From NCBI GenBank assembly GCA_963664225.1, contig OY760937.1:800001-864000 (forward strand): a DNA stretch of 64,000 bases, written 5' to 3'. The stretch is from Verrucomicrobiia bacterium (GTDB taxonomy: Bacteria; Verrucomicrobiota; Verrucomicrobiia; Limisphaerales; UBA1319). The translations under genes were made by a program, and so were the position numbers. This document shows, piece by piece, positions 3,609 to 56,219 of this stretch. Under the pieces are notes generated by a model, which ran no database searches, had not been told where the DNA came from, and was given only the letters and a program-made list of their open reading frames with translations. Each line of letters opens with the position of its first letter. The first letter of the stretch is position 1.

Positions 3609-3711
3609 GGCAAACTGCAACGCGGCGCATACGACTTGCCGCAATTAAGATTGCGCCGGTGACTGGGTTGAATGTCCGGAAAACCATTTGGTCATGCCAG
3701 CTTTATTTAAA

Positions 3712-3873
3712 CCCGAAGTCGGAAATAGGAACGGCCCATCTGACGCAATCATTCGGCCATCCATGGTTTGAAACCGGCTGTGGAGTATTGATTTGATACA
3801 CCCTCGCCGATTGCAAATCATGGCTGCCTCAAAGCATTGCATCATCCAAGCCCTTCTTATTTCGGATTTCGGG
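3712..3873. mobile_element. 162-bp MITE with IS1380-type inverted repeats (copy 1)
   Basis: Ends CCCGAAGTCGGAAATAG / CTTATTTCGGATTTCGGG; 5-bp TSD TTAAA (3707-3711; right copy = 3874 + 5850-5853, split by the intron); second copy at 28002-31675. Confidence 0.85.
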
Positions 3874-3874
3874 T

Positions 3875-5849
3875 GTGCGCCAGTGAAATTGGTAGCCTCG
3901 TGGGTGAAAGTCCCGCCGGTCGAATTAGACGGTTCACGACCGAAATGCAGCGTCCGGGACGAGGCCGTGAGGCCGAACCACAAGCGGGACGCTGAAAGAA
4001 CTGTCGGGTCGTAACGAAAGTAAACCTCATCAAATGAGCTCCGAAACCGAAATAACCGGTAAGCCGAGCCGCTACCCGAACGGCGAAGGCAGAAACGCGG
4101 CGTCATCAAATCGTCAAATGGGCGCTGTTGATTCCGGCGGAGTCAGCGAGGGCGACACGACAGGAAGGGAAACCAAGGTAAGCTGGGAGATCTCTGGAGG
4201 CGGGGCGATAAAGCCTCAACCGCCGGTGCAAGGAGGAACACCCTCCGAGGCCGCACGGGCAGCCAGAGAAGTCGGAGTCTTCCATAGTAGCGAAGAAGCT
4301 GGGGCGACCAAAACCCCGGCGGAGCCAAGGGAAGGCACTTGGATCGAAGCGAATCAAAACAGCGAGGGACAGGGAGATGGCCTTGAGGGAGTGGAAACAC
4401 TTTTTCAACGGATAACAACCCCGATAAAAGTTCAAAAGCTGCAGCGAGCGCTATATTGCAAAGCCAAGGCTGAGCCGAAGTATCGGTTTTACAGCCTCTA
4501 CGGAGAACTGCTGCGGAAGGACGTGCTGGAAACGGCAATGGCCTCCGTGGCGCACAACAATGGCGCGGCTGGGATCGACGGGCAGACATGCGACGTCTAT
4601 CTTGCCAGCGACGAAGCCTGGGACCAATGGCGGAACCAACTGCTGGAGGAGTTACGCACGAAGAAGTATCGGCCAAGCCCGGTGAAGCGTGTGTATATAC
4701 CAAAAGGAGACGGGAAGCTGCGACCCCTGGGCATCCCGACAGTGAAAGACCGGGTGGTGCAGACAGCGGTGGTGATTGTATTGCTGCCGATTCTGGAAGC
4801 CGATAGTCATCCGAACAGTTACGCCTATCATCCCAAACGCAATGCCCACCAAGCAATGGAGGCGATCAAGAAGGCTACGCTGACAGGACGCGTCGAAGTT
4901 ATAGACGCGGACTTAAGCGGGTATTTTGACAGCATTCCCCACAGGCGTTTGTTGCGCATAGTGGCCAAGCGGGTCAGCGATGGAACAATTCTCAAGCTGA
5001 TCGCAGGATGGCTGCGCGCGCCCGTGAATGAACCGCAAAGCGACACAGGGAAAGGCGGGACAAAGGGGGGGCAAGGTCAGAATCGACGGGGGACTCCGCA
5101 AGGCGGGGTTGTATCGCCGATTTTAGCCAATGCATACCTCAACCAGTTGGATTGGGAAGTCAACGAACGCTGCGAACTCAAACCCGTGATGGTGAGATAC
5201 GCGGATGATTTCGTGATACTCGGACAGCCGGGGCAGGGACGGGAACTGATGGAACGACTGGAACGATGGCTGAAGCAACGCGAGTTAGTGCTCAACGAGA
5301 AGAAGACCCGCTTGGTGGACCTCCGCCAGGATGGCATCAAATTCTTGGGATTCGCGCTAACAATGCGACAGGGGAAGGGGAAATGGAAATATCCGCATGT
5401 GGAACCCCATCCCAAGAGCCAGAAGAAGTTTCGAGACGGGATTCGGGAGAAACTCAACCGAAGCACGCTATGGCGTGATATCGGAGAGGTGATTCCCGAG
5501 CTCAACAAGAAACTCAAAGGTTGGAAGGGTTACTTTCACTACGGGAACAGCACCAAGGTGATGGGCCAGATGAACGAATACGTCAGCAGCAAGTTACAAC
5601 GATGGTTGTGGCGCAAACACGGATGTAGTCGGGCGCAATGGTCCACATACCCCAAGGAGGATCTCTATGAGCGTTATGGTTTATACCAAATGCCGGAATA
5701 TGCGGCATGGAAACGATGACGTCGAAGCGATGCAACGTATGATCCCCGGAGAGCCGGATGCGGGAAAACCGCCTGTCCGGTTCGATGAGGGGCGAAATGC
5801 GACGGTCATTGGCCACGGCCATTCAATCCGTCCATTTCGCCTACTCTAC
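3875..5849 (+). mobile_element. Group II intron, copy 1 (1975 nt)
   Basis: 5' GTGCG; domain V GAGCCGGATGCGGGAAAACCGCCTGTCCGGTTC (5751-5783); domain VI ending CTACTCTAC; boundaries confirmed by divergence from copy 2. Confidence 0.95.
4391..5719 (+). CDS. ltrA: Group II intron reverse transcriptase/maturase, no endonuclease domain
   Basis: RPLGIPTVKDR, DADLSGYFDSIPH, GTPQGGVVSP, RYADDF, FLGF, maturase GWKGYF. Start uncertain: GTG 4391 chosen because ATG 4034 lies in ribozyme domain I. Confidence 0.9.
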   Translation: METLFQRITTPIKVQKLQRALYCKAKAEPKYRFYSLYGELLRKDVLETAMASVAHNNGAAGIDGQTCDVYLASDEAWDQWRNQLLEELRTKKYRPSPVKRVYIPKGDGKLRPLGIPTVKDRVVQTAVVIVLLPILEADSHPNSYAYHPKRNAHQAMEAIKKATLTGRVEVIDADLSGYFDSIPHRRLLRIVAKRVSDGTILKLIAGWLRAPVNEPQSDTGKGGTKGGQGQNRRGTPQGGVVSPILANAYLNQLDWEVNERCELKPVMVRYADDFVILGQPGQGRELMERLERWLKQRELVLNEKKTRLVDLRQDGIKFLGFALTMRQGKGKWKYPHVEPHPKSQKKFRDGIREKLNRSTLWRDIGEVIPELNKKLKGWKGYFHYGNSTKVMGQMNEYVSSKLQRWLWRKHGCSRAQWSTYPKEDLYERYGLYQMPEYAAWKR

Positions 5850-5887
5850 TAAAAACGTTTTGCGGTGCATGGCTGTTCATTCGTAGG

Positions 5888-27733: not shown

Positions 27734-28086
27734 AAGGGGATAGTTTTAGGGAAGCGACCGTTCATGTCAATAAGACACGGAAAAAATGGGAAGTGAAGGT
27801 TATAAACATGGATGGAAAGGATGGGGAAATGGGGAGAATGGATAAGGGCAGAATGGATAATGGACAACCGGGGTCCCGTCCTAAAATAGGTTGTCACTAA
27901 TGAGACAACAAAACAGTGTTCGAAGGGTGGGGATACGGTACAGTGAGTCGTTTAAAATGGCCGTGGTTCGGGAGCTGGAAGAGGGCGAAATGTCCTTTGA
28001 GCCCGAAATCCGAAATAGGAACGGCCCATCTGACGCAATCATTTGGCCATCCATGGTTTGAAACCGGCTGTGGAGTATTGATTTAA

Positions 28087-29618
28087 CCCGAACTCCGAAG
28101 TTAGGTCGGTTTTTTTAGGGAACCGCTAACCCCTCCGGTCATATTCCGCCCCCTCCGAAAGCTTGCCGGGCTTCCGGTGGCACCAACTTCGGCGACGCGC
28201 TTTTCAACCAGTTCAACGTGGTTTCTATCAACGGCTTGTGTTTAGCCAGTCCACCCCAGGCCGCCGAGAGCCTCACCACCACATCACGCCCCATCGTTCC
28301 CAAGAGGGCTCCCGCCAGAAAAACCGTCGTCCGCAATGTTCCTGGCTGGCGGTATGGCTGGGTTGGAGTGGTCTGATGCTGGTAAAGACTCAGCAGGTTG
28401 AATGTGAAGAGCACCGCCAGAAACGCCGACTCGGTGGCGAAAAACGATTTCAGGCAAAAACCGTTGGCAGCCAGATCATTCTTCAGCTCCTCGATCCGCT
28501 GCTCGATGGTGGCCCTTCCGTTGTAGTCCCTCCACAGTTCCAGCGCGCCTTCACTTCGGTTGGTGACGCACACTCGAAAGGTGTAACCGGGCACATCAAT
28601 GAGCTTGCGACCCAGAGCCTCCTTGTCTTCCCTGATCCGCTCCCGCAGCACCACGAATCGCCGGGCAGTGGACCAGCCAAAGAGTTGGGCTCTAAACTCC
28701 CCCACGGCATGATTTTCATCGATGGCTTTCCAGTTCTGGATTCCCACGCAATGGTATTTGATCGTGGAGGTCATGCGCGCCACCACAATGTAGGTTAATT
28801 TGCGCATTTCCAAAAACGTCACTAACGCCTCATCGAAGAACCCGCTGTCGGCACGCACGCACCGAATCCACGTTCCCTCGGGCAACAGGGCCAATGCCTC
28901 CTGCAAAAACGGCACCACCCCGCGCGCGGCTCCGGTGTTGCCGCTGCGCAACCATCCATGCAGGATAAACGGCGCTTCGGCCAGCACCGCCAGGAGCGGA
29001 TGATGGCTCTTGCGCCCCTTGCGGCGTGGATTGTACCCCTTGGCAGCCCCCTCCTGCGAACCCTCCCGGCAGAACACGGTCGAATCCAGATCCAACGAGA
29101 AGCCTGCCTTGGGGCAGGCCAGCAGATTGAGCAGCCATCGCCAGAGCGGTCGCCAGAACGCTTCGATGTGGCCCTGGCCAAAGTGCAGGAAGAAGTTGCG
29201 GATGGTGTCATCGCCCGGGAAACGTTCCATCCCCAGCATGGCGTGCAGAACATGATCGGCACGCAGCCACTGACAGTGGGCAAAGCGGCGTGCTCCCGCC
29301 ACCACAGATACGATAAAACTGGTCAGCGTATGGGCTAGAGGAATGGCATTAGGTGAAGTGGGCGCGGCAAACGGCAAGCACCGCTGCACCGCCTGCGCAT
29401 AGCCGATCTGACCCAAAAAGGTTATGAATGAAGCCAGACCGCCGAAGGGGGTTATGGCCTTGGGAGTCTCATCCAGATAGAGCTTGGCTTGGCCGAAAAG
29501 AGCGCTAATTTCGACTGGGGTCGTTTTGTGCGAGTCTGAAGCGGGCTTGTTTAGCATCAAACCCTATTGCCTCAGAAGGTTGCGCATTGCGACCTCTTTT
29601 TCTATCTCGGAGTTCGGG
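28087..29618 (-). mobile_element. IS1380-family insertion sequence
   Basis: IR CCCGAACTCCGA at both ends; TSD TTTAA (28082-28086; right copy 29619 + 31595-31598). Confidence 0.92.
28139..29557 (-). CDS. IS1380-family DDE transposase
   Basis: TPFGGL, LDLDST, GYNP, HHPL, LRSGN, VRADSGFF, YNGRATIEQRIEELK. Confidence 0.92.
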   Translation of the reverse strand: MLNKPASDSHKTTPVEISALFGQAKLYLDETPKAITPFGGLASFITFLGQIGYAQAVQRCLPFAAPTSPNAIPLAHTLTSFIVSVVAGARRFAHCQWLRADHVLHAMLGMERFPGDDTIRNFFLHFGQGHIEAFWRPLWRWLLNLLACPKAGFSLDLDSTVFCREGSQEGAAKGYNPRRKGRKSHHPLLAVLAEAPFILHGWLRSGNTGAARGVVPFLQEALALLPEGTWIRCVRADSGFFDEALVTFLEMRKLTYIVVARMTSTIKYHCVGIQNWKAIDENHAVGEFRAQLFGWSTARRFVVLRERIREDKEALGRKLIDVPGYTFRVCVTNRSEGALELWRDYNGRATIEQRIEELKNDLAANGFCLKSFFATESAFLAVLFTFNLLSLYQHQTTPTQPYRQPGTLRTTVFLAGALLGTMGRDVVVRLSAAWGGLAKHKPLIETTLNWLKSASPKLVPPEARQAFGGGGI

Positions 29619-29619
29619 T

Positions 29620-31594
29620 GTGCGCCAGTGAAATTGGTAGCCTCGTGGGTGAAAGTCCCGCCGGTCGAATTAGACGGTTCACGACCGAAATGCAGCGTCC
29701 GGGACGAGGCCGTGAGGCCGAACCACAAGCGGGACGCTGAAAGAACTGTCGGGTCGTAACGAAAGTAAACCTCATCAAATGAGCTCCGAAACCGAAATAA
29801 CCGGTAAGCCGAGCCGCTACCCGAACGGCGAAGGCAGAAACGCGGCGTCATCAAATCGTCAAATGGGCGCTGTTGATTCCGGCGGAGTCAGCGAGGGCGA
29901 CACGACAGGAAGGGAAACCAAGGTAAGCTGGGAGATCTCTGGAGGCGGGGCGATAAAGCCTCAACCGCCGGTGCAAGGAGGAACACCCTCCGAGGCCGCA
30001 CGGGCAGCCAGAGAAGTCGGAGTCTTCCATAGTAGCGAAGAAGCTGGGGCGACCAAAACCCCGGCGGAGCCAAGGGAAGGCACTTGGATCGAAGCGAATC
30101 AAAACAGCGAGGGACAGGGAGATGGCCTTGAGGGAGTGGAAACACTTTTTCAACGGATAACAACCCCGATAAAAGTTCAAAAGCTGCAGCGAGCGCTATA
30201 TTGCAAAGCCAAGGCTGAGCCGAAGTATCGGTTTTACAGCCTCTACGGAGAACTGCTGCGGAAGGACGTGCTGGAAACGGCAATGGCCTCCGTGGCGCAC
30301 AACAATGGCGCGGCTGGGATCGACGGGCAGACATGCGACGTCTATCTTGCCAGCGACGAAGCCTGGGACCAATGGCGGAACCAACTGCTGGAGGAGTTAC
30401 GCACGAAGAAGTATCGGCCAAGCCCGGTGAAGCGTGTGTATATACCAAAAGGAGACGGGAAGCTGCGACCCCTGGGCATCCCGACAGTGAAAGACCGGGT
30501 GGTGCAGACAGCGGTGGTGATTGTATTGCTGCCGATTCTGGAAGCCGATAGTCATCCGAACAGTTACGCCTATCATCCCAAACGCAATGCCCACCAAGCA
30601 ATGGAGGCGATCAAGAAGGCTACGCTGACAGGACGCGTCGAAGTTATAGACGCGGACTTAAGCGGGTATTTTGACAGCATTCCCCACAGGCGTTTGTTGC
30701 GCATAGTGGCCAAGCGGGTCAGCGATGGAACAATTCTCAAGCTGATCGCAGGATGGCTGCGCGCGCCCGTGAATGAACCGCAAAGCGACACAGGGAAAGG
30801 CGGGACAAAGGGGGGGCAAGGTCAGAATCGACGGGGGACTCCGCAAGGCGGGGTTGTATCGCCGATTTTAGCCAATGCATACCTCAACCAGTTGGATTGG
30901 GAAGTCAACGAACGCTGCGAACTCAAACCCGTGATGGTGAGATACGCGGATGATTTCGTGATACTCGGACAGCCGGGGCAGGGACGGGAACTGATGGAAC
31001 GACTGGAACGATGGCTGAAGCAACGCGAGTTAGTGCTCAACGAGAAGAAGACCCGCTTGGTGGACCTCCGCCAGGATGGCATCAAATTCTTGGGATTCGC
31101 GCTAACAATGCGACAGGGGAAGGGGAAATGGAAATATCCGCATGTGGAACCCCATCCCAAGAGCCAGAAGAAGTTTCGAGACGGGATTCGGGAGAAACTC
31201 AACCGAAGCACGCTATGGCGTGATATCGGAGAGGTGATTCCCGAGCTCAACAAGAAACTCAAAGGTTGGAAGGGTTACTTTCACTACGGGAACAGCACCA
31301 AGGTGATGGGCCAGATGAACGAATACGTCAGCAGCAAGTTACAACGATGGTTGTGGCGCAAACACGGATGTAGTCGGGCGCAATGGTCCACATACCCCAA
31401 GGAGGATCTCTATGAGCGTTATGGTTTATACCAAATGCCGGAATATGCGGCATGGAAACGATGACGTCGAAGCGATGCAACGTATGATCCCCGGAGAGCC
31501 GGATGCGGGAAAACCGCCTGTCCGGTTCGATGAGGGGCGAAATGCGACGGTCATTGGCCACGGCCATTCAATCCGTCCATTTCGCCTACTCTAC
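29620..31594 (+). mobile_element. Group II intron, copy 2
   Basis: Same length and ends as copy 1 (offset 25745); all translated internal ORFs identical. Confidence 0.95.
30136..31464 (+). CDS. ltrA: Group II intron reverse transcriptase/maturase
   Basis: Protein identical to copy 1 (YADD); start uncertain. Confidence 0.9.
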   Translation: METLFQRITTPIKVQKLQRALYCKAKAEPKYRFYSLYGELLRKDVLETAMASVAHNNGAAGIDGQTCDVYLASDEAWDQWRNQLLEELRTKKYRPSPVKRVYIPKGDGKLRPLGIPTVKDRVVQTAVVIVLLPILEADSHPNSYAYHPKRNAHQAMEAIKKATLTGRVEVIDADLSGYFDSIPHRRLLRIVAKRVSDGTILKLIAGWLRAPVNEPQSDTGKGGTKGGQGQNRRGTPQGGVVSPILANAYLNQLDWEVNERCELKPVMVRYADDFVILGQPGQGRELMERLERWLKQRELVLNEKKTRLVDLRQDGIKFLGFALTMRQGKGKWKYPHVEPHPKSQKKFRDGIREKLNRSTLWRDIGEVIPELNKKLKGWKGYFHYGNSTKVMGQMNEYVSSKLQRWLWRKHGCSRAQWSTYPKEDLYERYGLYQMPEYAAWKR

Positions 31595-32030
31595 TTAATA
31601 CACCTTCGCCGATTGCAAATCATGGCTGTCTCAAAGCATTGCATCGTCTTGACCATTCTTATTTCGGATTTCGGGTTGAGGCGATGCGGCGAAAGTACGG
31701 CATAAAGGGCACGGGCACCGTCCAAAAGTGGGCTCGCAAGTACGGCAGGGGCGATTTAGGAAAGGTCATACGCGTGGAAACACCTAAAGAATTCAATGAA
31801 CGGGATCAAATGAAGAAGCGAATCAAGGCTTTGGAGAAAGCGTTGGCCGATGCGCACATCGATCTGGCGATCGAGCGTGCCACCATCCAAGTGGCCTGCG
31901 AACGGGCGGGGATTAAGGATGTGGCGGAGTTCAAAAAAAAAGTGGCTGGGAAATAGCCCATTGTGCGGTCAGGGGAGGTTCGGCGGATCAGGAGGTGCCG
32001 GTCAAAGGGGTGTGTCGCCGACTGGGGATG

Positions 32031-34489: not shown

Positions 34490-36790
34490 AGATTTCGGGA
34501 GTCGCGGGAGGAATTGGGTGGTTTGGAAGTTGGATAAACATGGCGCTCCGCTGGAGCTGGGAGGAAATTGACAATGGGAAATCGGTTGGGTTTGGGGGTG
34601 CCGTTTGCTATAAACATGTCGCCCCGCTGGGGCTAGAAAACGCAGGTGAGGACAAGAATCTACGACCCCTGCCGGGGTCGGGTTCGAATGCGTGGGGATT
34701 CCGGGGGTGTCGGTCGCGGACGACCTCAACCACCCGGCTAATCGCTTGTATCCCTCCGGGATGGCTTTGATAAACATTTCGCCCCGCTGGGGCTAAGAAA
34801 CGCACGTGAGTACAGGACCGCCAAATGGACTGACTGGACTGACAATTGGCTGTGGATTTCAGGGCGTTTGGCTTTGATTCAACCCTTTCAGGGTAGGGGA
34901 TTCCTGGGGGGGCGATTACCCCGGGTAGGCCTCGGCGGTCAACCCGGGGCTGAGTGATTGCATCCCGTTCCGGGTTGCCGGTCAGGACGTTTTAGTAGGA
35001 GTGGCCGGCATAATGGTTCGCCCATGGTGGTTCGGTGTTGGACTCAGATGGACCATGAAAAGGGTGGGGGAATGCGGACATGGGTCTGTGAATATTAAAT
35101 GTTTCAATCAAGGCAGGGGAGTGTCTGAAATGGTTCTCGCCTCGTTTGTGTCCATTCAGGTTCTGCTGCGAAAGAGAAGACATGCGTCATTTGGCATCTA
35201 TAAACATGACGCTCCGATGGAGCTTGGGAATTGGTCGTGGGGGTGGCGATTGCTATAAACATGTCGCCCCGCTGGGGCTAAGAAACGCAGGTGAGGACAA
35301 GAATCTGCGACCCCTGCCGGGGTCGGGTTCGAATGCGTGGGGATTCCGGGGGTGTCGGTCGCGGACGACCTCAACCACCCGGCTAATCGCTTGTATCCCT
35401 CCGGGATGGCTTTGATAAACATGTCGTCCCGCTGGGGCTACGAAACGCAGGTGAGGACAGGACCGCCAAATGGACTGACTGGACTGACCATTGGCTGTGG
35501 ATTGCAGGGCGTATGGTTTTGATTCAACCCTTTCAGGGTAGGGAATTCCTGGGGGTCGATTACCCCGGGTAGGCCTTGGCGGCCAACCCGGGGCTGAGTG
35601 ATTGCAACCCGTTCCGGGTTGCCGGTGAGGAGGTTTTGGCAGGAGTGGCCGGCAAAAGGGTTCGCCCATAGTGGTTCGGTGTTGGACTCACGTGGACCAT
35701 GAAAAGGGTGGGTGAATGCGGACATGGGTCTGTGAATATTAAATGTTTCAATCAAGGCAGGGGAGTGTCTGAAATGGTTCTCGCCTCGTTTGTGTCCATT
35801 CAGGTTCTGCTGCGAAAGAGAAGACATGCGTCATTTGGCATCTATAAACATGACGCTCCGATGGAGCTTGGGAATTGGTCGTGGGGGTGGCGATTGCTAT
35901 AAACATGTCGCCCGCGCTGGGGCTGGGAGGAAATGGAAAATGGGGCGAAGGGGTTGGTCTGGGGGTTGGAATTGGTAGTGGGGGTGGCGTTTGCTATAAA
36001 CGTGGCGCTCCGCTGGGGTAAAGAAACGCAGGTGAGGACAAGAATCTGCGACCCCTGCCGGGGTCGGGTTCGATTGCGTGGGGATTCCGGGGGTGTCGGT
36101 CGCGGACGACCTCAACCACCCGGCTAATCGCTTGTATCCCTCCGGGATGGCGATGAGAAACATGGCGCTCCGCTGGGGCTGGGAGGAAATGGAAAATGGG
36201 GCGAAGGGGTTGGTCTGGGGGTGCCGCTTGCTATAAACATGTCGTCCCGCTGGGGCTAGAAAACGCAGGTGAGGACAAGAATCTACGACCCCTGCCGGGG
36301 TCGGATTCGAATGCGTGGGGATTCCGGGGGTGTCGGTCGCGGACGACCTCAACCACCCGGCTAATCGCTTGTATCCCTCCGGGATGGCGATGAGAAACAT
36401 GGCGCCCCGCTGGAGTTGGGAGGAAATGGAAAATGGTCAATTGACCGGAAGATCGCGGGAAGAATTGGGCGGTTTGGAAATTGGATAAACATGGTGCTCC
36501 GCTGGAGCTGGGAATTGGTCAGGGGGTGGCGCTTGCTATAAACATGTCGCCCCGCTGGGGCTTGGGTTTTGTCGTTGTTCGATTTCTATAAAAATGTCGC
36601 CCCGCTGGGGTAAAGAAACGCAGGTGAGGACAAGAATCTACGACCCCTGCCGGGGTCGGGTTCGATTGCGTGGGGATTCCGGGGGTGTCGGTCGCGGACG
36701 ACCTCAACCACCCGGCTAATCGCTTGTATCCCTCCGGGATGGCTTTGATAAACATGTCGCCTCGCTGGGACTGGGAGGAAATGGAAAATG
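34490..36790. repeat. Non-coding REP-like palindrome array
   Basis: About 16 same-orientation copies of ATAAACATGTCGCCCCGCTGGGGCT-like units; five ~160-bp modules with CGACCCCTGCCGGGGTCG and ATCCCTCCGGGAT; ~645-bp tandem duplication. Confidence 0.9.
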
Positions 36791-36968
36791 GACATCTGGG
36801 GAAGAGCAATTTACATGGATGGGAAGGATGAACAGGATTTTTGACCGCGGATAGGACGGCGTTTTAAAGGGGTTTTCAGTTTGGGGAAGTTTCTGTCCTG
36901 AATCCACGAATCCGGGCGGTTGCAGGAAACGCTTGCGGAGTGGTGCGGGCTGGGGAATAGTCGCGGGC

Positions 36969-43606: not shown

Positions 43607-43945
43607 GAGGGCGGAGGGCGGAGGAAATGGATAATTGACAATCGAAAATGGACAATGAAGCCAACTTCGAATTAGGCAATCCGTGGGAGAAGAGAATTAT
43701 ACATGGATAATCAGGATGGGCAGGATTTTTAACCACGGATATGACGGATGGCACGCAAGAAGGCGAGCGCTGACTGAGCGGCACCTCTCCACGCCGCGCG
43801 GTGACTTCCTGCCGCTCCAAGGGGCGACTGGATGGCTGGAATAAGCGCATAAATCGCAAAATGGAGTTTCTGCAGCGCCGCAACACGCTAATTTCATGCG
43901 GTTTACACATTTTGGAGAGCCTCAAGAACCACGCAGATGAGGGTA

Positions 43946-52464: not shown

Positions 52465-52534
52465 GAAGAGGGCGGAGGAAAATTGATAATGGATAATTGA
52501 CAATTGGGTCCCGTCCTAAAATAGGTTGTCCCTA

Positions 52535-52912
52535 ATGAGACAACAAAACAGTGTTCGAAGGGTGGGGATACGGTACAGTGAGTCGTTTAAAATGGCTGTG
52601 GTTCGGGAGCTGGAAGAGGGCGAAATGTCCTTTGAGGCGATGCGGCGAAAGTACGGCATAAAGGGCACGGGCACCGTCCAAAAGTGGGCTCGCAAGTACG
52701 GCAGGGGCGATTTAGGAAAGGTCATACGCGTGGAAACACCTAAAGAATTCAATGAACGGGATCAAATGAAGAAGCGAATCAAGGCTTTGGAGAAAGCGTT
52801 GGCCGATGCGCACATCGATCTGGCGATCGAGCGTGCCACCATCCAAGTGGCCTGCGAACGGGCGGGGATTAAGGATGTGGCGGAGTTCAAAAAAAAAGTG
52901 GCTGGGAAATAG
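52535..52912 (+). CDS. IS3 transposase OrfA (HTH)
   Basis: RYSESFKMAVV..YGI..TVQKW. Confidence 0.9.
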   Translation: MRQQNSVRRVGIRYSESFKMAVVRELEEGEMSFEAMRRKYGIKGTGTVQKWARKYGRGDLGKVIRVETPKEFNERDQMKKRIKALEKALADAHIDLAIERATIQVACERAGIKDVAEFKKKVAGK

Positions 52913-52914
52913 CC
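52889..52914 (+). promoter_or_regulatory. Putative -1 programmed frameshift signal
   Basis: A9G run followed by GGCTG-GGAAA-TAGCC hairpin; the -1 frame is open into orfB. Confidence 0.7.
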
Positions 52915-52950
52915 CATTGTGCGGTCAGGGGAGGTTCGGCGGATCAGGAG

Positions 52951-54000: not shown

Positions 54001-54550
54001 GTGCAGGGCGGAGGGGAGAGGAAAAACGAACATCCAACAGCGAACATTCAACAATGAACCTCAAACTTGGCAAGGGCGGGGAAGCCACAGATTGGCACAG
54101 ATAAACACAGATTTGGGAAGGGCAGGATGGGAGAACGGCCCAGCGAAAAAGAGACCAATTCAAGCCAGGACTTGAACGGACCCGTGGCGAAATGAGATCA
54201 ACATGGATGGGCAGGATGGACAGGATTTTTAACCACGGATTTCACGGACGGCAGGGATGGGGAAAAAAGATTTAACCACATAGAGCTCATAGATCTCAAA
54301 GAAATAGGCGGGTGAAAACGGGGTTTTTAACCACGGATATCACGGATGGCACGGATATGGGAAAAAAGGATTTAACCGCATAGAACTCATAGAACACATA
54401 GAAAAGAAGGGGGAAGAAGACAGGATTTTTAACCACGGAAAGGGAGATTAATTTCGAGGCCGTAAGAAGGACGGGGTTTGGGCGGAGGGCAGAGGGCGGG
54501 GAAGCCACAGATTGGCACAGATAAACACAGATTTGGGAAGGGCAGGATGG
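54001..54550. repeat. Mosaic of short periodic repeats bounded by a 57-bp direct repeat
   Basis: GGGCGGGGAAGCCACAGATTGGCACAGATAAACACAGATTTGGGAAGGGCAGGATGG at 54074-54130 and 54494-54550; several TTTAACCAC units inside. Confidence 0.8.
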
Positions 54551-55595: not shown

Positions 55596-56219
55596 CGTGC
55601 GGGTCCGGCAATGGTCAGATCTCAAATGACGACCGCCCTCCCCATGAACCCAAAGCGGGATGTCTTCCATTACAAGTTACATGGAAAGAAGTGGGTGAAG
55701 ATATATCAACATGGATAAGCAGGATGAGCAGGATTTTTAACCACTGACATCACGGATGGCACGGATGAGGAAATGGATAATTGAGAAATCGACCGGCAGC
55801 GAATTACAGAAAAGGGTTGACGTACGCCCTCATCCCGGCCTTCTCCCCCAGGAGAAGGAGGAGTATTGCGAGCCCTGGGTTTATTGCACGGTTTGGAGGA
55901 TGCCGCCGCGTGGGGTTTGTTCATGAAGAAAACTTCAATTGGAGGGGGAATTAAGGAACGCCCTCATCCCCGCCTTCCCCGAGAAGGGGGAGTATTGCGA
56001 GTCCTGGATTTATTGCACGGTTTGGACGATGCCGCCGTGCCGGACTTAATGCCCCACACCGACGACTGGCGTCCTGGCCGGGTTCGTACGGTTTAGGCTT
56101 TTACCAGCTTCCTGAATTGTGTCATGCACACTTTGTGAGGTTTGGTGCGTATGATGGATTGACGCATGGGGGATTAATTTGACAGGTTGGCGGTTGCAAA
56201 TTCAAAGAAAGAATACGCG

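Follow-up and report, generated by a model that had tools for sequence, protein, structure and literature searches.

We analysed a 64,000-nucleotide (nt) stretch of the genome of a Verrucomicrobiia bacterium (contig OY760937.1, positions 800,001 to 864,000; hereafter the window), which carries two identical copies of a group II intron, each lying directly beside the end of a transposable element. Copy 1 follows a miniature inverted-repeat transposable element (MITE), and copy 2 follows an autonomous insertion sequence (IS) of the IS1380 family. At the copy 1 junction, the MITE ends in ...TTATTTCGGATTTCGGG, followed by T at 3874, the intron, and then TAAA, such that the 5-bp target-site duplication (TSD) TTAAA is split after its first base. 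At the copy 2 junction, the IS1380 element ends in ...CTATCTCGGAGTTCGGG, followed by T29619, the intron, and then TTAA, and the left flank of the element (28082-28086) reads TTTAA. The intron lies inside the TSD, one base outside the transposon. An earlier reading of this DNA (hereafter the original prediction) had placed both introns 1 nt past an IS1380-type terminal inverted repeat (IR), with the TSD split after its first base, and this placement can be read directly from the junctions.

The host elements are well defined. The transposase of the IS matches NF033539 with 227 bits (cut-off 180) and also contains PF13701. IS1380-family elements, as in ISfinder, have terminal IRs starting with CC and make a 4-5-bp duplication, and the element here fits both traits: its IRs are CCCGAAC...GTTCGGG, and its 5-bp TSDs follow the palindromic consensus TTWAA. 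The genome holds five copies of this element that are 100% identical. Using blastn, we found the MITE as 18 full-length copies (161-162 bp, 92-100% identity) plus a few split or partial ones, the window MITE being 92.6% identical to the reference copy. The IRs of the MITE and of the IS have 17 of 23 bases in common by manual count, and both elements make 5-bp TSDs; the MITE is probably mobilised by the IS1380 transposase.

Both window copies of the intron match the Rfam model group-II-D1D4-6 (RF02005; 54.9 bits, cut-off 49) and the domain V/VI model Intron_gpII (RF00029; 49.3 bits, cut-off 40). The boundaries, GTGCG at 3875 and CTAC ending at 5849, agree with the 5' GUGYG and 3' AY signatures and are the same in six relatives. 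An RNAalifold consensus of seven relatives contains 77 pairs, 12 of them with compensatory changes, and the exon-binding loops of domain I are present; the intron RNA is IIB-like. The encoded protein is located in domain IV and scores 357 bits against TIGR04416 (group II reverse transcriptase/maturase; cut-off 300), with PF00078 (RVT_1) covering residues 107-326 and PF08388 (GIIM) residues 349-421 of the 446 amino acids translated from 4379. The GsI-IIC reverse transcriptase is among its best matches of solved structure (E = 9e-48). No endonuclease family was found in the protein with Pfam, which returned RVT_1 and GIIM only, and the C-terminus lies 25 amino acids past GIIM. A promoter-like site at 3793-3821 (TTGATA, a 17-nt spacer, and AATCAT; one found versus 0.2 expected from shuffles) is situated inside the MITE and reads toward the intron, for which it could provide transcription.

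The whole genome is a single contig of 5.78 Mb, and a blastn census identifies 19 full-length copies of the intron, all 100% identical. The 5' flank is ...TCGGA(T/G)TTCGGG-T in 19/19 copies; on the 3' side, 10 copies have TAAA and 9 have TTAA. The original prediction had named copies in unrelated flanks as one of the observations that would speak against it; the genome-wide search for intron ends returned none, and every copy shares the IR flank. MITEs host 13 copies (8 at arm R and 5 at arm L) and the IS hosts 4 (3 at the transposase-proximal and 1 at the transposase-distal end), with 2 more at solo IR remnants that keep 12-15 nt of the IR tip and have no partner repeat within 4 kb. Removal of the intron restores a perfect 5-bp direct repeat at 16 of the 17 two-ended hosts, and the 17th matches at 4 of 5 bases, in agreement with the earlier claim that insertion falls outside the IS. 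One intron-free MITE has the TSD TTTAT and its other end is therefore flanked by A, indicating that the -1 base is part of the target rather than of the element. The sequence TTCGGGT^T, where the caret marks the insertion point, occurs at 263 sites in the genome. Fifty of these have TCGGA(T/G) at -13 to -8, of which 19 are occupied, versus 0/213 of the remaining sites without TCGGAK upstream (Fisher p = 8e-16). In sequencing runs X1 and X2, the depth of the intron contig is ~20x that of the flanking contigs, a depth that does not equal copy number.

Recognition of this target can be traced to loops of intron domain I. According to the original prediction, the target is read by ACCCGAA, the exact complement of TTCGGGT. 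We found that this exon-binding site 1 (EBS1) lies in the terminal loop of a hairpin and exon-binding site 2 (EBS2) in an internal loop, and the two placements agree in the Rfam alignment and the RNAalifold consensus. Pairing between EBS1 and intron-binding site 1 (IBS1) is 7/7 here and in 6/6 genome-derived relatives with a known flank (six different sequences). Across 42 distinct intron/exon pairs, including metagenomic ones, EBS1-IBS1 pairing reaches at least 6/7 in 36 and 7/7 in 21, with a mean of 6.19 for an intron and its own exon versus 4.24 for mismatched partners, and 0/2000 permutations reach the own mean. The assignment of ACCCGAA as the EBS1 loop thus stands, and the covariation that the original prediction had proposed to look for among homologues was found.

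The EBS2 loop carries CCGAAATAA at 4047-4055, which is complementary to TTATTTCGG at 3857-3865. EBS2 pairs over 9 bp at MITE arm R (reached by 3/2000 shuffles), over 8 bp at arm L, over 7 bp and 5 bp at two further kinds of site, and elsewhere only through the invariant CCGA:TCGG. Covariation of EBS2 across the clade is weak but significant (own mean helix 3.90 versus 3.39 for cross pairs; 0/2000 permutations), and complementarity of the EBS2 loop is not significant in any single genome-derived relative (L001, L003, the three target variants of L004, L005, and L100). The original prediction had paired the whole of 4039-4055 with the inner IR. Its downstream part survives as EBS2, with 9 bp at just one MITE arm, whereas the proposed pairing of CUCCGA (4039-4044) with TCGGAG is lost: these bases sit mostly in a conserved helix, in which alignment columns 167-171 pair with 266-270, and CUCCGA is therefore not a free exon-binding site. 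At the column of the candidate EBS3, the six relatives that have T as the first base of the 3' exon carry A, and L005, in which that base is A, carries U. The site is laid out as IBS1, a 2-nt linker, and IBS2 from -10. Taken together, the observation behind the original prediction is confirmed, and its core interpretation, that the intron reads the IR tip plus the first TSD bases by EBS-IBS pairing, is supported at 19/19 copies.

Table 1 Features of the two intron loci, in window coordinates
Feature	Position	Strand	Remarks
MITE left TSD copy (TTAAA)	3707-3711	.	matches T3874 plus TAAA at 5850-5853
IS1380-type MITE, 162 bp	3712-3873	.	terminal inverted repeats CCCGAAGTCGGAAATAGG...CTTATTTCGGATTTCGGG
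IBS2 (TTATTTCGG)	3857-3865	+	positions -18 to -10, within the MITE IR; 9-bp complement of EBS2
IBS1 (TTCGGGT)	3868-3874	+	positions -7 to -1; final 6 bases of the IR plus first TSD base; identical in 19/19
Group II intron copy 1	3875-5849	+	1975 nt, complete, GTGCG...CTAC; Rfam RF02005 and RF00029
Candidate EBS3 (A)	3995	+	unpaired column 123 of alignment A1; predicted to pair with the +1 T
EBS2 (CCGAAAUAA)	4047-4055	+	hypervariable internal loop of domain I
EBS1 (ACCCGAA)	4074-4080	+	terminal loop of a domain I hairpin
Intron-encoded protein, open reading frame	4391-5719	+	reverse transcriptase and X (maturase) domains, no endonuclease domain; frame open from 4034
Domains V and VI, intron 3' end	5749-5849	+	RF00029
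3' exon TAAA	5850-5853	+	remaining 4 bases of the split TSD; T5850 is IBS3
Second MITE copy, left part, interrupted by IS1380	28002-28086	.	
Autonomous IS1380-family element, 1532 bp	28087-29618	-	transposase frame 29560 down to 28140; TSD TTTAA
Group II intron copy 2	29620-31594	+	identical to copy 1; one base (T29619) past the IS1380 IR tip
Interrupted MITE, right part	31595-31675	.	end at 31675/31676 with flank T-TGAG is an unoccupied favoured-strand site

The intron copies follow a strict strand pattern along the genome. Plus-strand copies are located at 0.045-0.95 Mb and 2.99-5.61 Mb, and minus-strand copies at 1.66-2.19 Mb. dnaA lies at 2.990 Mb, and the GC skew switches sign at ~1.45 Mb; all copies at 1.66-2.19 Mb are minus (6/6), and all copies outside the 1.45-2.99 Mb interval are plus (12/12). 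The fraction of long open reading frames (ORFs) on the plus strand is below 0.5 in all 200-kb windows between 1.2 and 3.2 Mb. If the origin is assumed at dnaA and the terminus at the skew switch, 18 of the 19 introns lie in the lagging-strand template, and the remaining copy, 3.8 kb from dnaA, is not assignable to a strand class. Among the assignable sites flanked by T/T at -1/+1, occupancy is 18/24 on the lagging-template strand versus 0/22 on the other strand (p = 5e-8), and no element in the genome carries an intron at both ends. This pattern points to an insertion bias toward the lagging-strand template, given the direction of replication that we infer. Of the 24 favoured-strand sites whose flank is the complete T^TWAA, 19 are filled, indicating that the intron is close to saturating its niche.

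The replication landscape has further features of its own. The cumulative GC skew never returns to zero, and the plus strand is G-rich over ~73% of the genome; this discrepancy between skew and dnaA suggests that the replichores are very unequal in length or that the chromosome was recently rearranged on a large scale. Outside the window, 14 further domain V/VI matches (for example at 1480328, 1795801, 1678396, and 1303855) represent at least four other group II intron families. Two copies of one of these families are on the plus strand within the inferred left replichore, and that family therefore does not share the strand rule.

We consider it highly likely that the window harbours an active or very recently active group II intron that homes by base pairing to the IR tip and the adjacent TSD bases; the 19 identical copies and the intact domains suggest that it retrohomes. 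In the mechanism we propose, the intron ribonucleoprotein would find its DNA target through EBS1 (ACCCGAA), which would pair with the last six bases of the IR and the first TSD base (TTCGGG-T). Past a two-base linker, EBS2 (CCGAAAUAA) would pair with 4 to 9 inner IR bases, among which the TCGG core is invariant, and a single A (EBS3) would pair with the second TSD base. The spliced RNA would reverse-splice between TSD bases 1 and 2, and the transposon would stay intact because of this position. Without an endonuclease, complementary DNA synthesis would be primed by nascent lagging-strand DNA (Okazaki fragments) at replication forks, and only the element end on the lagging-strand template would be colonised. 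Since the IS1380 transposase makes a palindromic TTWAA duplication, each new IS or MITE insertion would offer one suitable site, in either orientation. The original prediction that new IS and MITE insertions give fresh targets fits with the palindromic TSD consensus and with the use of both ends as targets.

Several observations weigh against this account. At one solo site and at the IS end proximal to the transposase, EBS2 pairing is limited to 4 bp, and complementarity of the EBS2 loop is not significant at the 16 junctions of a sister intron in another genome (G004); specificity upstream of -8 may come partly from the protein instead. The assignment of EBS3 to A3995 is likely, judging from one covariation event. 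Since the GC skew stays flat from 1.8 to 3.7 Mb, five minus-strand copies (2.03-2.19 Mb) are assigned to a replichore by gene-strand bias and by their location, which is between the skew switch and dnaA, and the implied replichores are very unequal (~1.5 versus 4.2 Mb). The start codon of the intron protein is uncertain: GTG at 4391 is our best guess from comparison with the relatives, in which the start near this position is ATG, TTG, or CTG, and the conserved ATG at 4377 lies in another frame. On the favoured strand, five sites that match in full (genome positions 266580, 623754, 2988328, 3232797, and 3982650) have no intron, and no contig in four public runs joins 3874 to 5850, that is, none represents an empty-site allele.

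Other explanations can account for parts of these data. Class C (IIC) introns such as B.h.I1 and GsI-IIC insert after terminators or attC hairpins, and the present intron could similarly recognise the shape of its DNA target, entering at the 3' base of the stem of a single-stranded MITE hairpin, with complementarity being secondary. The MITE is ~73% identical to its own reverse complement (blastn), and folded as a DNA hairpin its 162 nt reach -34.1 kcal/mol (z = -3.5), and the intron enters one base beyond the stem. In G004, the sister intron likewise occupies the edge of 57-89-bp palindromic repeats, and a partner IR lies within 270 nt at 12/53 metagenomic junctions versus 3/371 controls. We nevertheless regard recognition by shape as very unlikely. 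Six of the 19 sites have no nearby partner, namely four IS ends, where the other IR is 1.5 kb away, and the two solo remnants; the copies in L003 and L100 are without a partner IR as well. A hairpin would bury IBS1 and IBS2 in its stem, covariation links EBS1 to the exon, and an EBS2 loop is present here, whereas class C introns are not known to have EBS2. It is still less probable that the intron invades the gap left by fresh transposition, where 5 nt of TSD would be exposed as a single strand and the downstream 3'-OH could be the primer. Such a route might explain why the insertion point is inside the TSD on the strand bearing the transposon 3' end, and why the geometry of IR tip plus one base recurs in metagenomic MITE-like hosts. 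However, both ends should then serve equally, yet 0/22 other-strand sites are occupied; moreover, identical introns are found beside old, diverged MITEs such as the one in the window, and solo IR remnants are used.

We give even less credence to the intron being a passenger of IS1380 or MITE transposition, carried for example through use of an alternative downstream end, with no homing of its own. The intron does always abut an IS or MITE end, and members of the IS1380 family, ISEcp1 for example, can mobilise neighbouring DNA. However, the 5-bp duplication surrounds just the IS or MITE and is split by the intron, the same intron occurs at four different kinds of end, and MITEs that differ by up to 7% carry identical introns. 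In addition, the strand bias is absolute, and no IS-plus-intron unit has a duplication of its own. Nineteen 100%-identical copies in an assembly of one contig could also mean that one repeat was placed many times during assembly, but the chance of such an artefact is negligible: each copy has different unique flanks and host-element variants, contigs of X1 and X2 hold the intron in one piece while separate unique contigs reach both sides, and related introns with the same habit are present in unrelated assemblies.

Homing by base pairing to the IR tip and TSD bases, the reading that we prefer, has a precedent in part. A literature search, with subscription-only papers outside its coverage, found RmInt2 of Sinorhizobium meliloti GR4 as the sole case of IR homing: it has seven identical copies, located within the IRs of ISRm17, both left and right (Martinez-Rodriguez et al. 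2014, PMC4615759; PMC5894124). Its authors argued that the two IRs guarantee one site on the lagging-strand template, and a lagging-template bias was seen (PMC4615759). The suggestion in the original prediction that the IR-tip strategy was undescribed must thus be withdrawn, as RmInt2 already uses both ISRm17 IRs under the same lagging-strand argument, and IR homing itself is not new in kind (PMC4615759). The present intron resembles RmInt2 in having no endonuclease, in its identical copies, in the targeting of both IRs, in its lagging-template bias, and in the site layout of IBS1, two-base linker, and IBS2 from -10, which selection experiments found for RmInt2; as few as 4 EBS2 pairs are tolerated in both cases (PMC4615759). 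In contrast, RmInt2 inserts inside the IR, whereas the present intron is one base outside, in the TSD (PMC4615759). The host of RmInt2 is ISRm17 of the ISNCY family (PMC10194956) as opposed to IS1380 and MITEs here, and 7 copies compare with 19 here. Insertion outside the IR in the TSD, MITEs as the main home, near-saturation of the niche, and recurrence in relatives with a retuned EBS1 are new; no description of these features, among them insertion in the TSD beside an IR and MITE ends as intron homes, was found in the same search, which likewise left out subscription-only papers.

RmInt1 of S. meliloti, which uses ISRm2011-2, is similar in the absence of an endonuclease, the IIB-type RNA, the presence of EBS1-3, lagging-strand priming, and a high-copy IS as host; it differs in that its insertion blocks the spread of ISRm2011-2, whereas neither the transposase gene nor either IR is damaged by the present intron (PMC4615759, PMC5894124). 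RmInt2 belongs to class D, a family with the C-terminal motif LX3AX3PXLF[V/A]HW (PMC4615759), which is absent here. A regular-expression search finds this motif in the RmInt1 protein from pSymA, and the intron protein (P0001), which ends in ...LYERYGLYQMPEYAAWKR and is 36% identical to the RmInt1 protein, gives no match. On the absence of this motif, we rejected membership of class D (IIB3). Like class C introns, the present intron inserts directly after the 3' side of a DNA palindrome and outside genes, and its protein has no endonuclease; it differs from them in its EBS2 loop, in its 7-bp EBS1, which pairs with the sequence of the stem, and in its use of sites that have no partner. Membership of class C (IIC) does not hold either, considering the EBS2 loop with its 9-bp pairing and the 6/19 sites without a nearby partner.

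Related introns extend these observations beyond the genome under study. In a genome of the same family (G008), an IS that is 86% identical has the same TCGGAGTTCGGG tips, and the intron was not found in that assembly, which is 93% complete. Introns that are ~77% identical are present at five loci of the genome collection. In genome G039, L100 is a 697-nt derivative that keeps domains I-III and V-VI and has its ORF deleted, and its EBS1, GCCGTAA, matches its own 5' exon TTACGGC. G004 contains at least 16 intron copies, most of whose junctions are at contig ends. There, ...ATCCGTGNNATCCGTGG precedes 16/16 5' junctions, the 3' flank begins with T in 17/17, and the EBS1 CCACGGA is a perfect match. 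The target in G004 is the edge of a 57-89-bp palindromic repeat, both arms of which are used and whose end motif has 170 occurrences versus 0 for the control.

Scanning metagenomes with a conserved 21-mer of domain I, we obtained 80 loci, for which up to 270 nt upstream of each junction were examined. The partner IRs mentioned above were counted as inverted partners of the tip 16-mer, at 53 distinct junctions for which 200 nt or more upstream were available and at 371 control offsets; the partner-bearing elements measure 37-200 bp, and their geometry is again IR tip plus one base. The L223 junction adjoins the start of an IS1380 transposase, and this is the one locus that tblastn with the window transposase finds (2.7e-8). 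An NCBIfam scan of 249 stop-free fragments finds IS1380 in L223 (E = 0.0083) and in L246 (6.5e-18), where the intron is inside the IS1380 transposase gene. Other NCBIfam matches at junctions are to IS6 (L221), IS110 (L194), weakly to IS3 and IS1634, and to the genes lysA, Lrp, and NapH-like. Since junctions also lie in or beside IS6, IS110, and ordinary genes, these data do not confine the intron clade to IS1380. The 5' exon consensus is AACTGCCGNNTTCRGG-T, and at least 10 of 17 anchored identities to the IS tip are found at 32/58 junctions versus 2/348 controls; inherited EBS sequences may account for this consensus as much as IR homology does. A search of 201 genomes from the phylum for the pattern CCYGAANNCGGCAGTT gives 29 matches versus 11 for the reversed control, none of them beside an IS1380 transposase, and thus there is no independent support for AACTGCCGNNTTCRGG as an IS1380 IR.

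From these relatives we put forward, tentatively and at a little short of an even chance, that a clade of endonuclease-less introns lives at the outer edge of transposon and MITE IRs, retuning EBS1 to each repeat family while keeping the geometry. On one metagenome contig, two related introns (L230 and L231) follow each other head to tail, and the 3' end of the first serves as 5' exon of the second. This arrangement resembles the tandem insertions reported for RmInt2.

The order of events at the window loci can be partly reconstructed. The introns are 100% identical and their host MITEs differ by up to ~7%, indicating that the intron arrived after the MITEs. At 27871-31975, outer repeat, MITE, IS1380, and intron form a four-level nest: the outer repeat, which has an intact copy at 52506-52931, was hit at 28002 by the MITE with the duplication TTGAG, the MITE was then hit at its centre by IS1380 with the duplication TTTAA, and finally the intron entered at the IS end. 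The outer repeat starts with a small ORF resembling a transposase helix-turn-helix protein. Elsewhere in the genome (264642-266499), a different IS of 1858 bp, present in 6 genome copies, is found at the MITE centre. It hit the same AT-rich spot (TTTAATAC) where IS1380 landed twice, and the MITE centre is therefore an insertion hot spot. At genome position 264554, the sequence that follows the MITE end (T-GTGATG) was considered as a candidate second intron and rejected, the 1858-bp insert in that MITE being this other IS.

Two further sets of repeats are present in the window. Family D3, at 1306-1386, 36797-36877, 43685-43765, 54185-54363, and 55693-55773, contains ...TTTTTAACCACGGA(N)3TGACGGATGGCACGGAT and resembles the CCACGGAT...ATCCGTGG palindromic repeat that is targeted by the sister intron in G004; no intron is on D3 here. 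The region 34500-36900 is dense in imperfect direct repeats of 48-300 nt (D1, D2, and D7-D9) that have the core CTATAAACATGTCGCCCCGCTGGGGCT and irregular spacing, and it does not resemble clustered regularly interspaced short palindromic repeats (CRISPR).

The genome amounts to a natural genome-scale test of the lagging-strand-template model, as the two ends of each element are equivalent targets, one per strand, and insertions are confined to one of the strands. With a 17-nt target and matching EBS loops defined, and with relatives that have been retargeted naturally, the lineage is a possible system in which to study how specificity changes in introns that lack an endonuclease. It is also a hazard for annotation, since it breaks short-read assemblies at MITE ends. 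The nesting itself would be non-disruptive: both elements stay functional, and the transposon keeps making homes for the intron. If the tentative proposal for the clade is true, these introns would be hyperparasites that never damage their host transposon, with a copy number capped by transposon activity.

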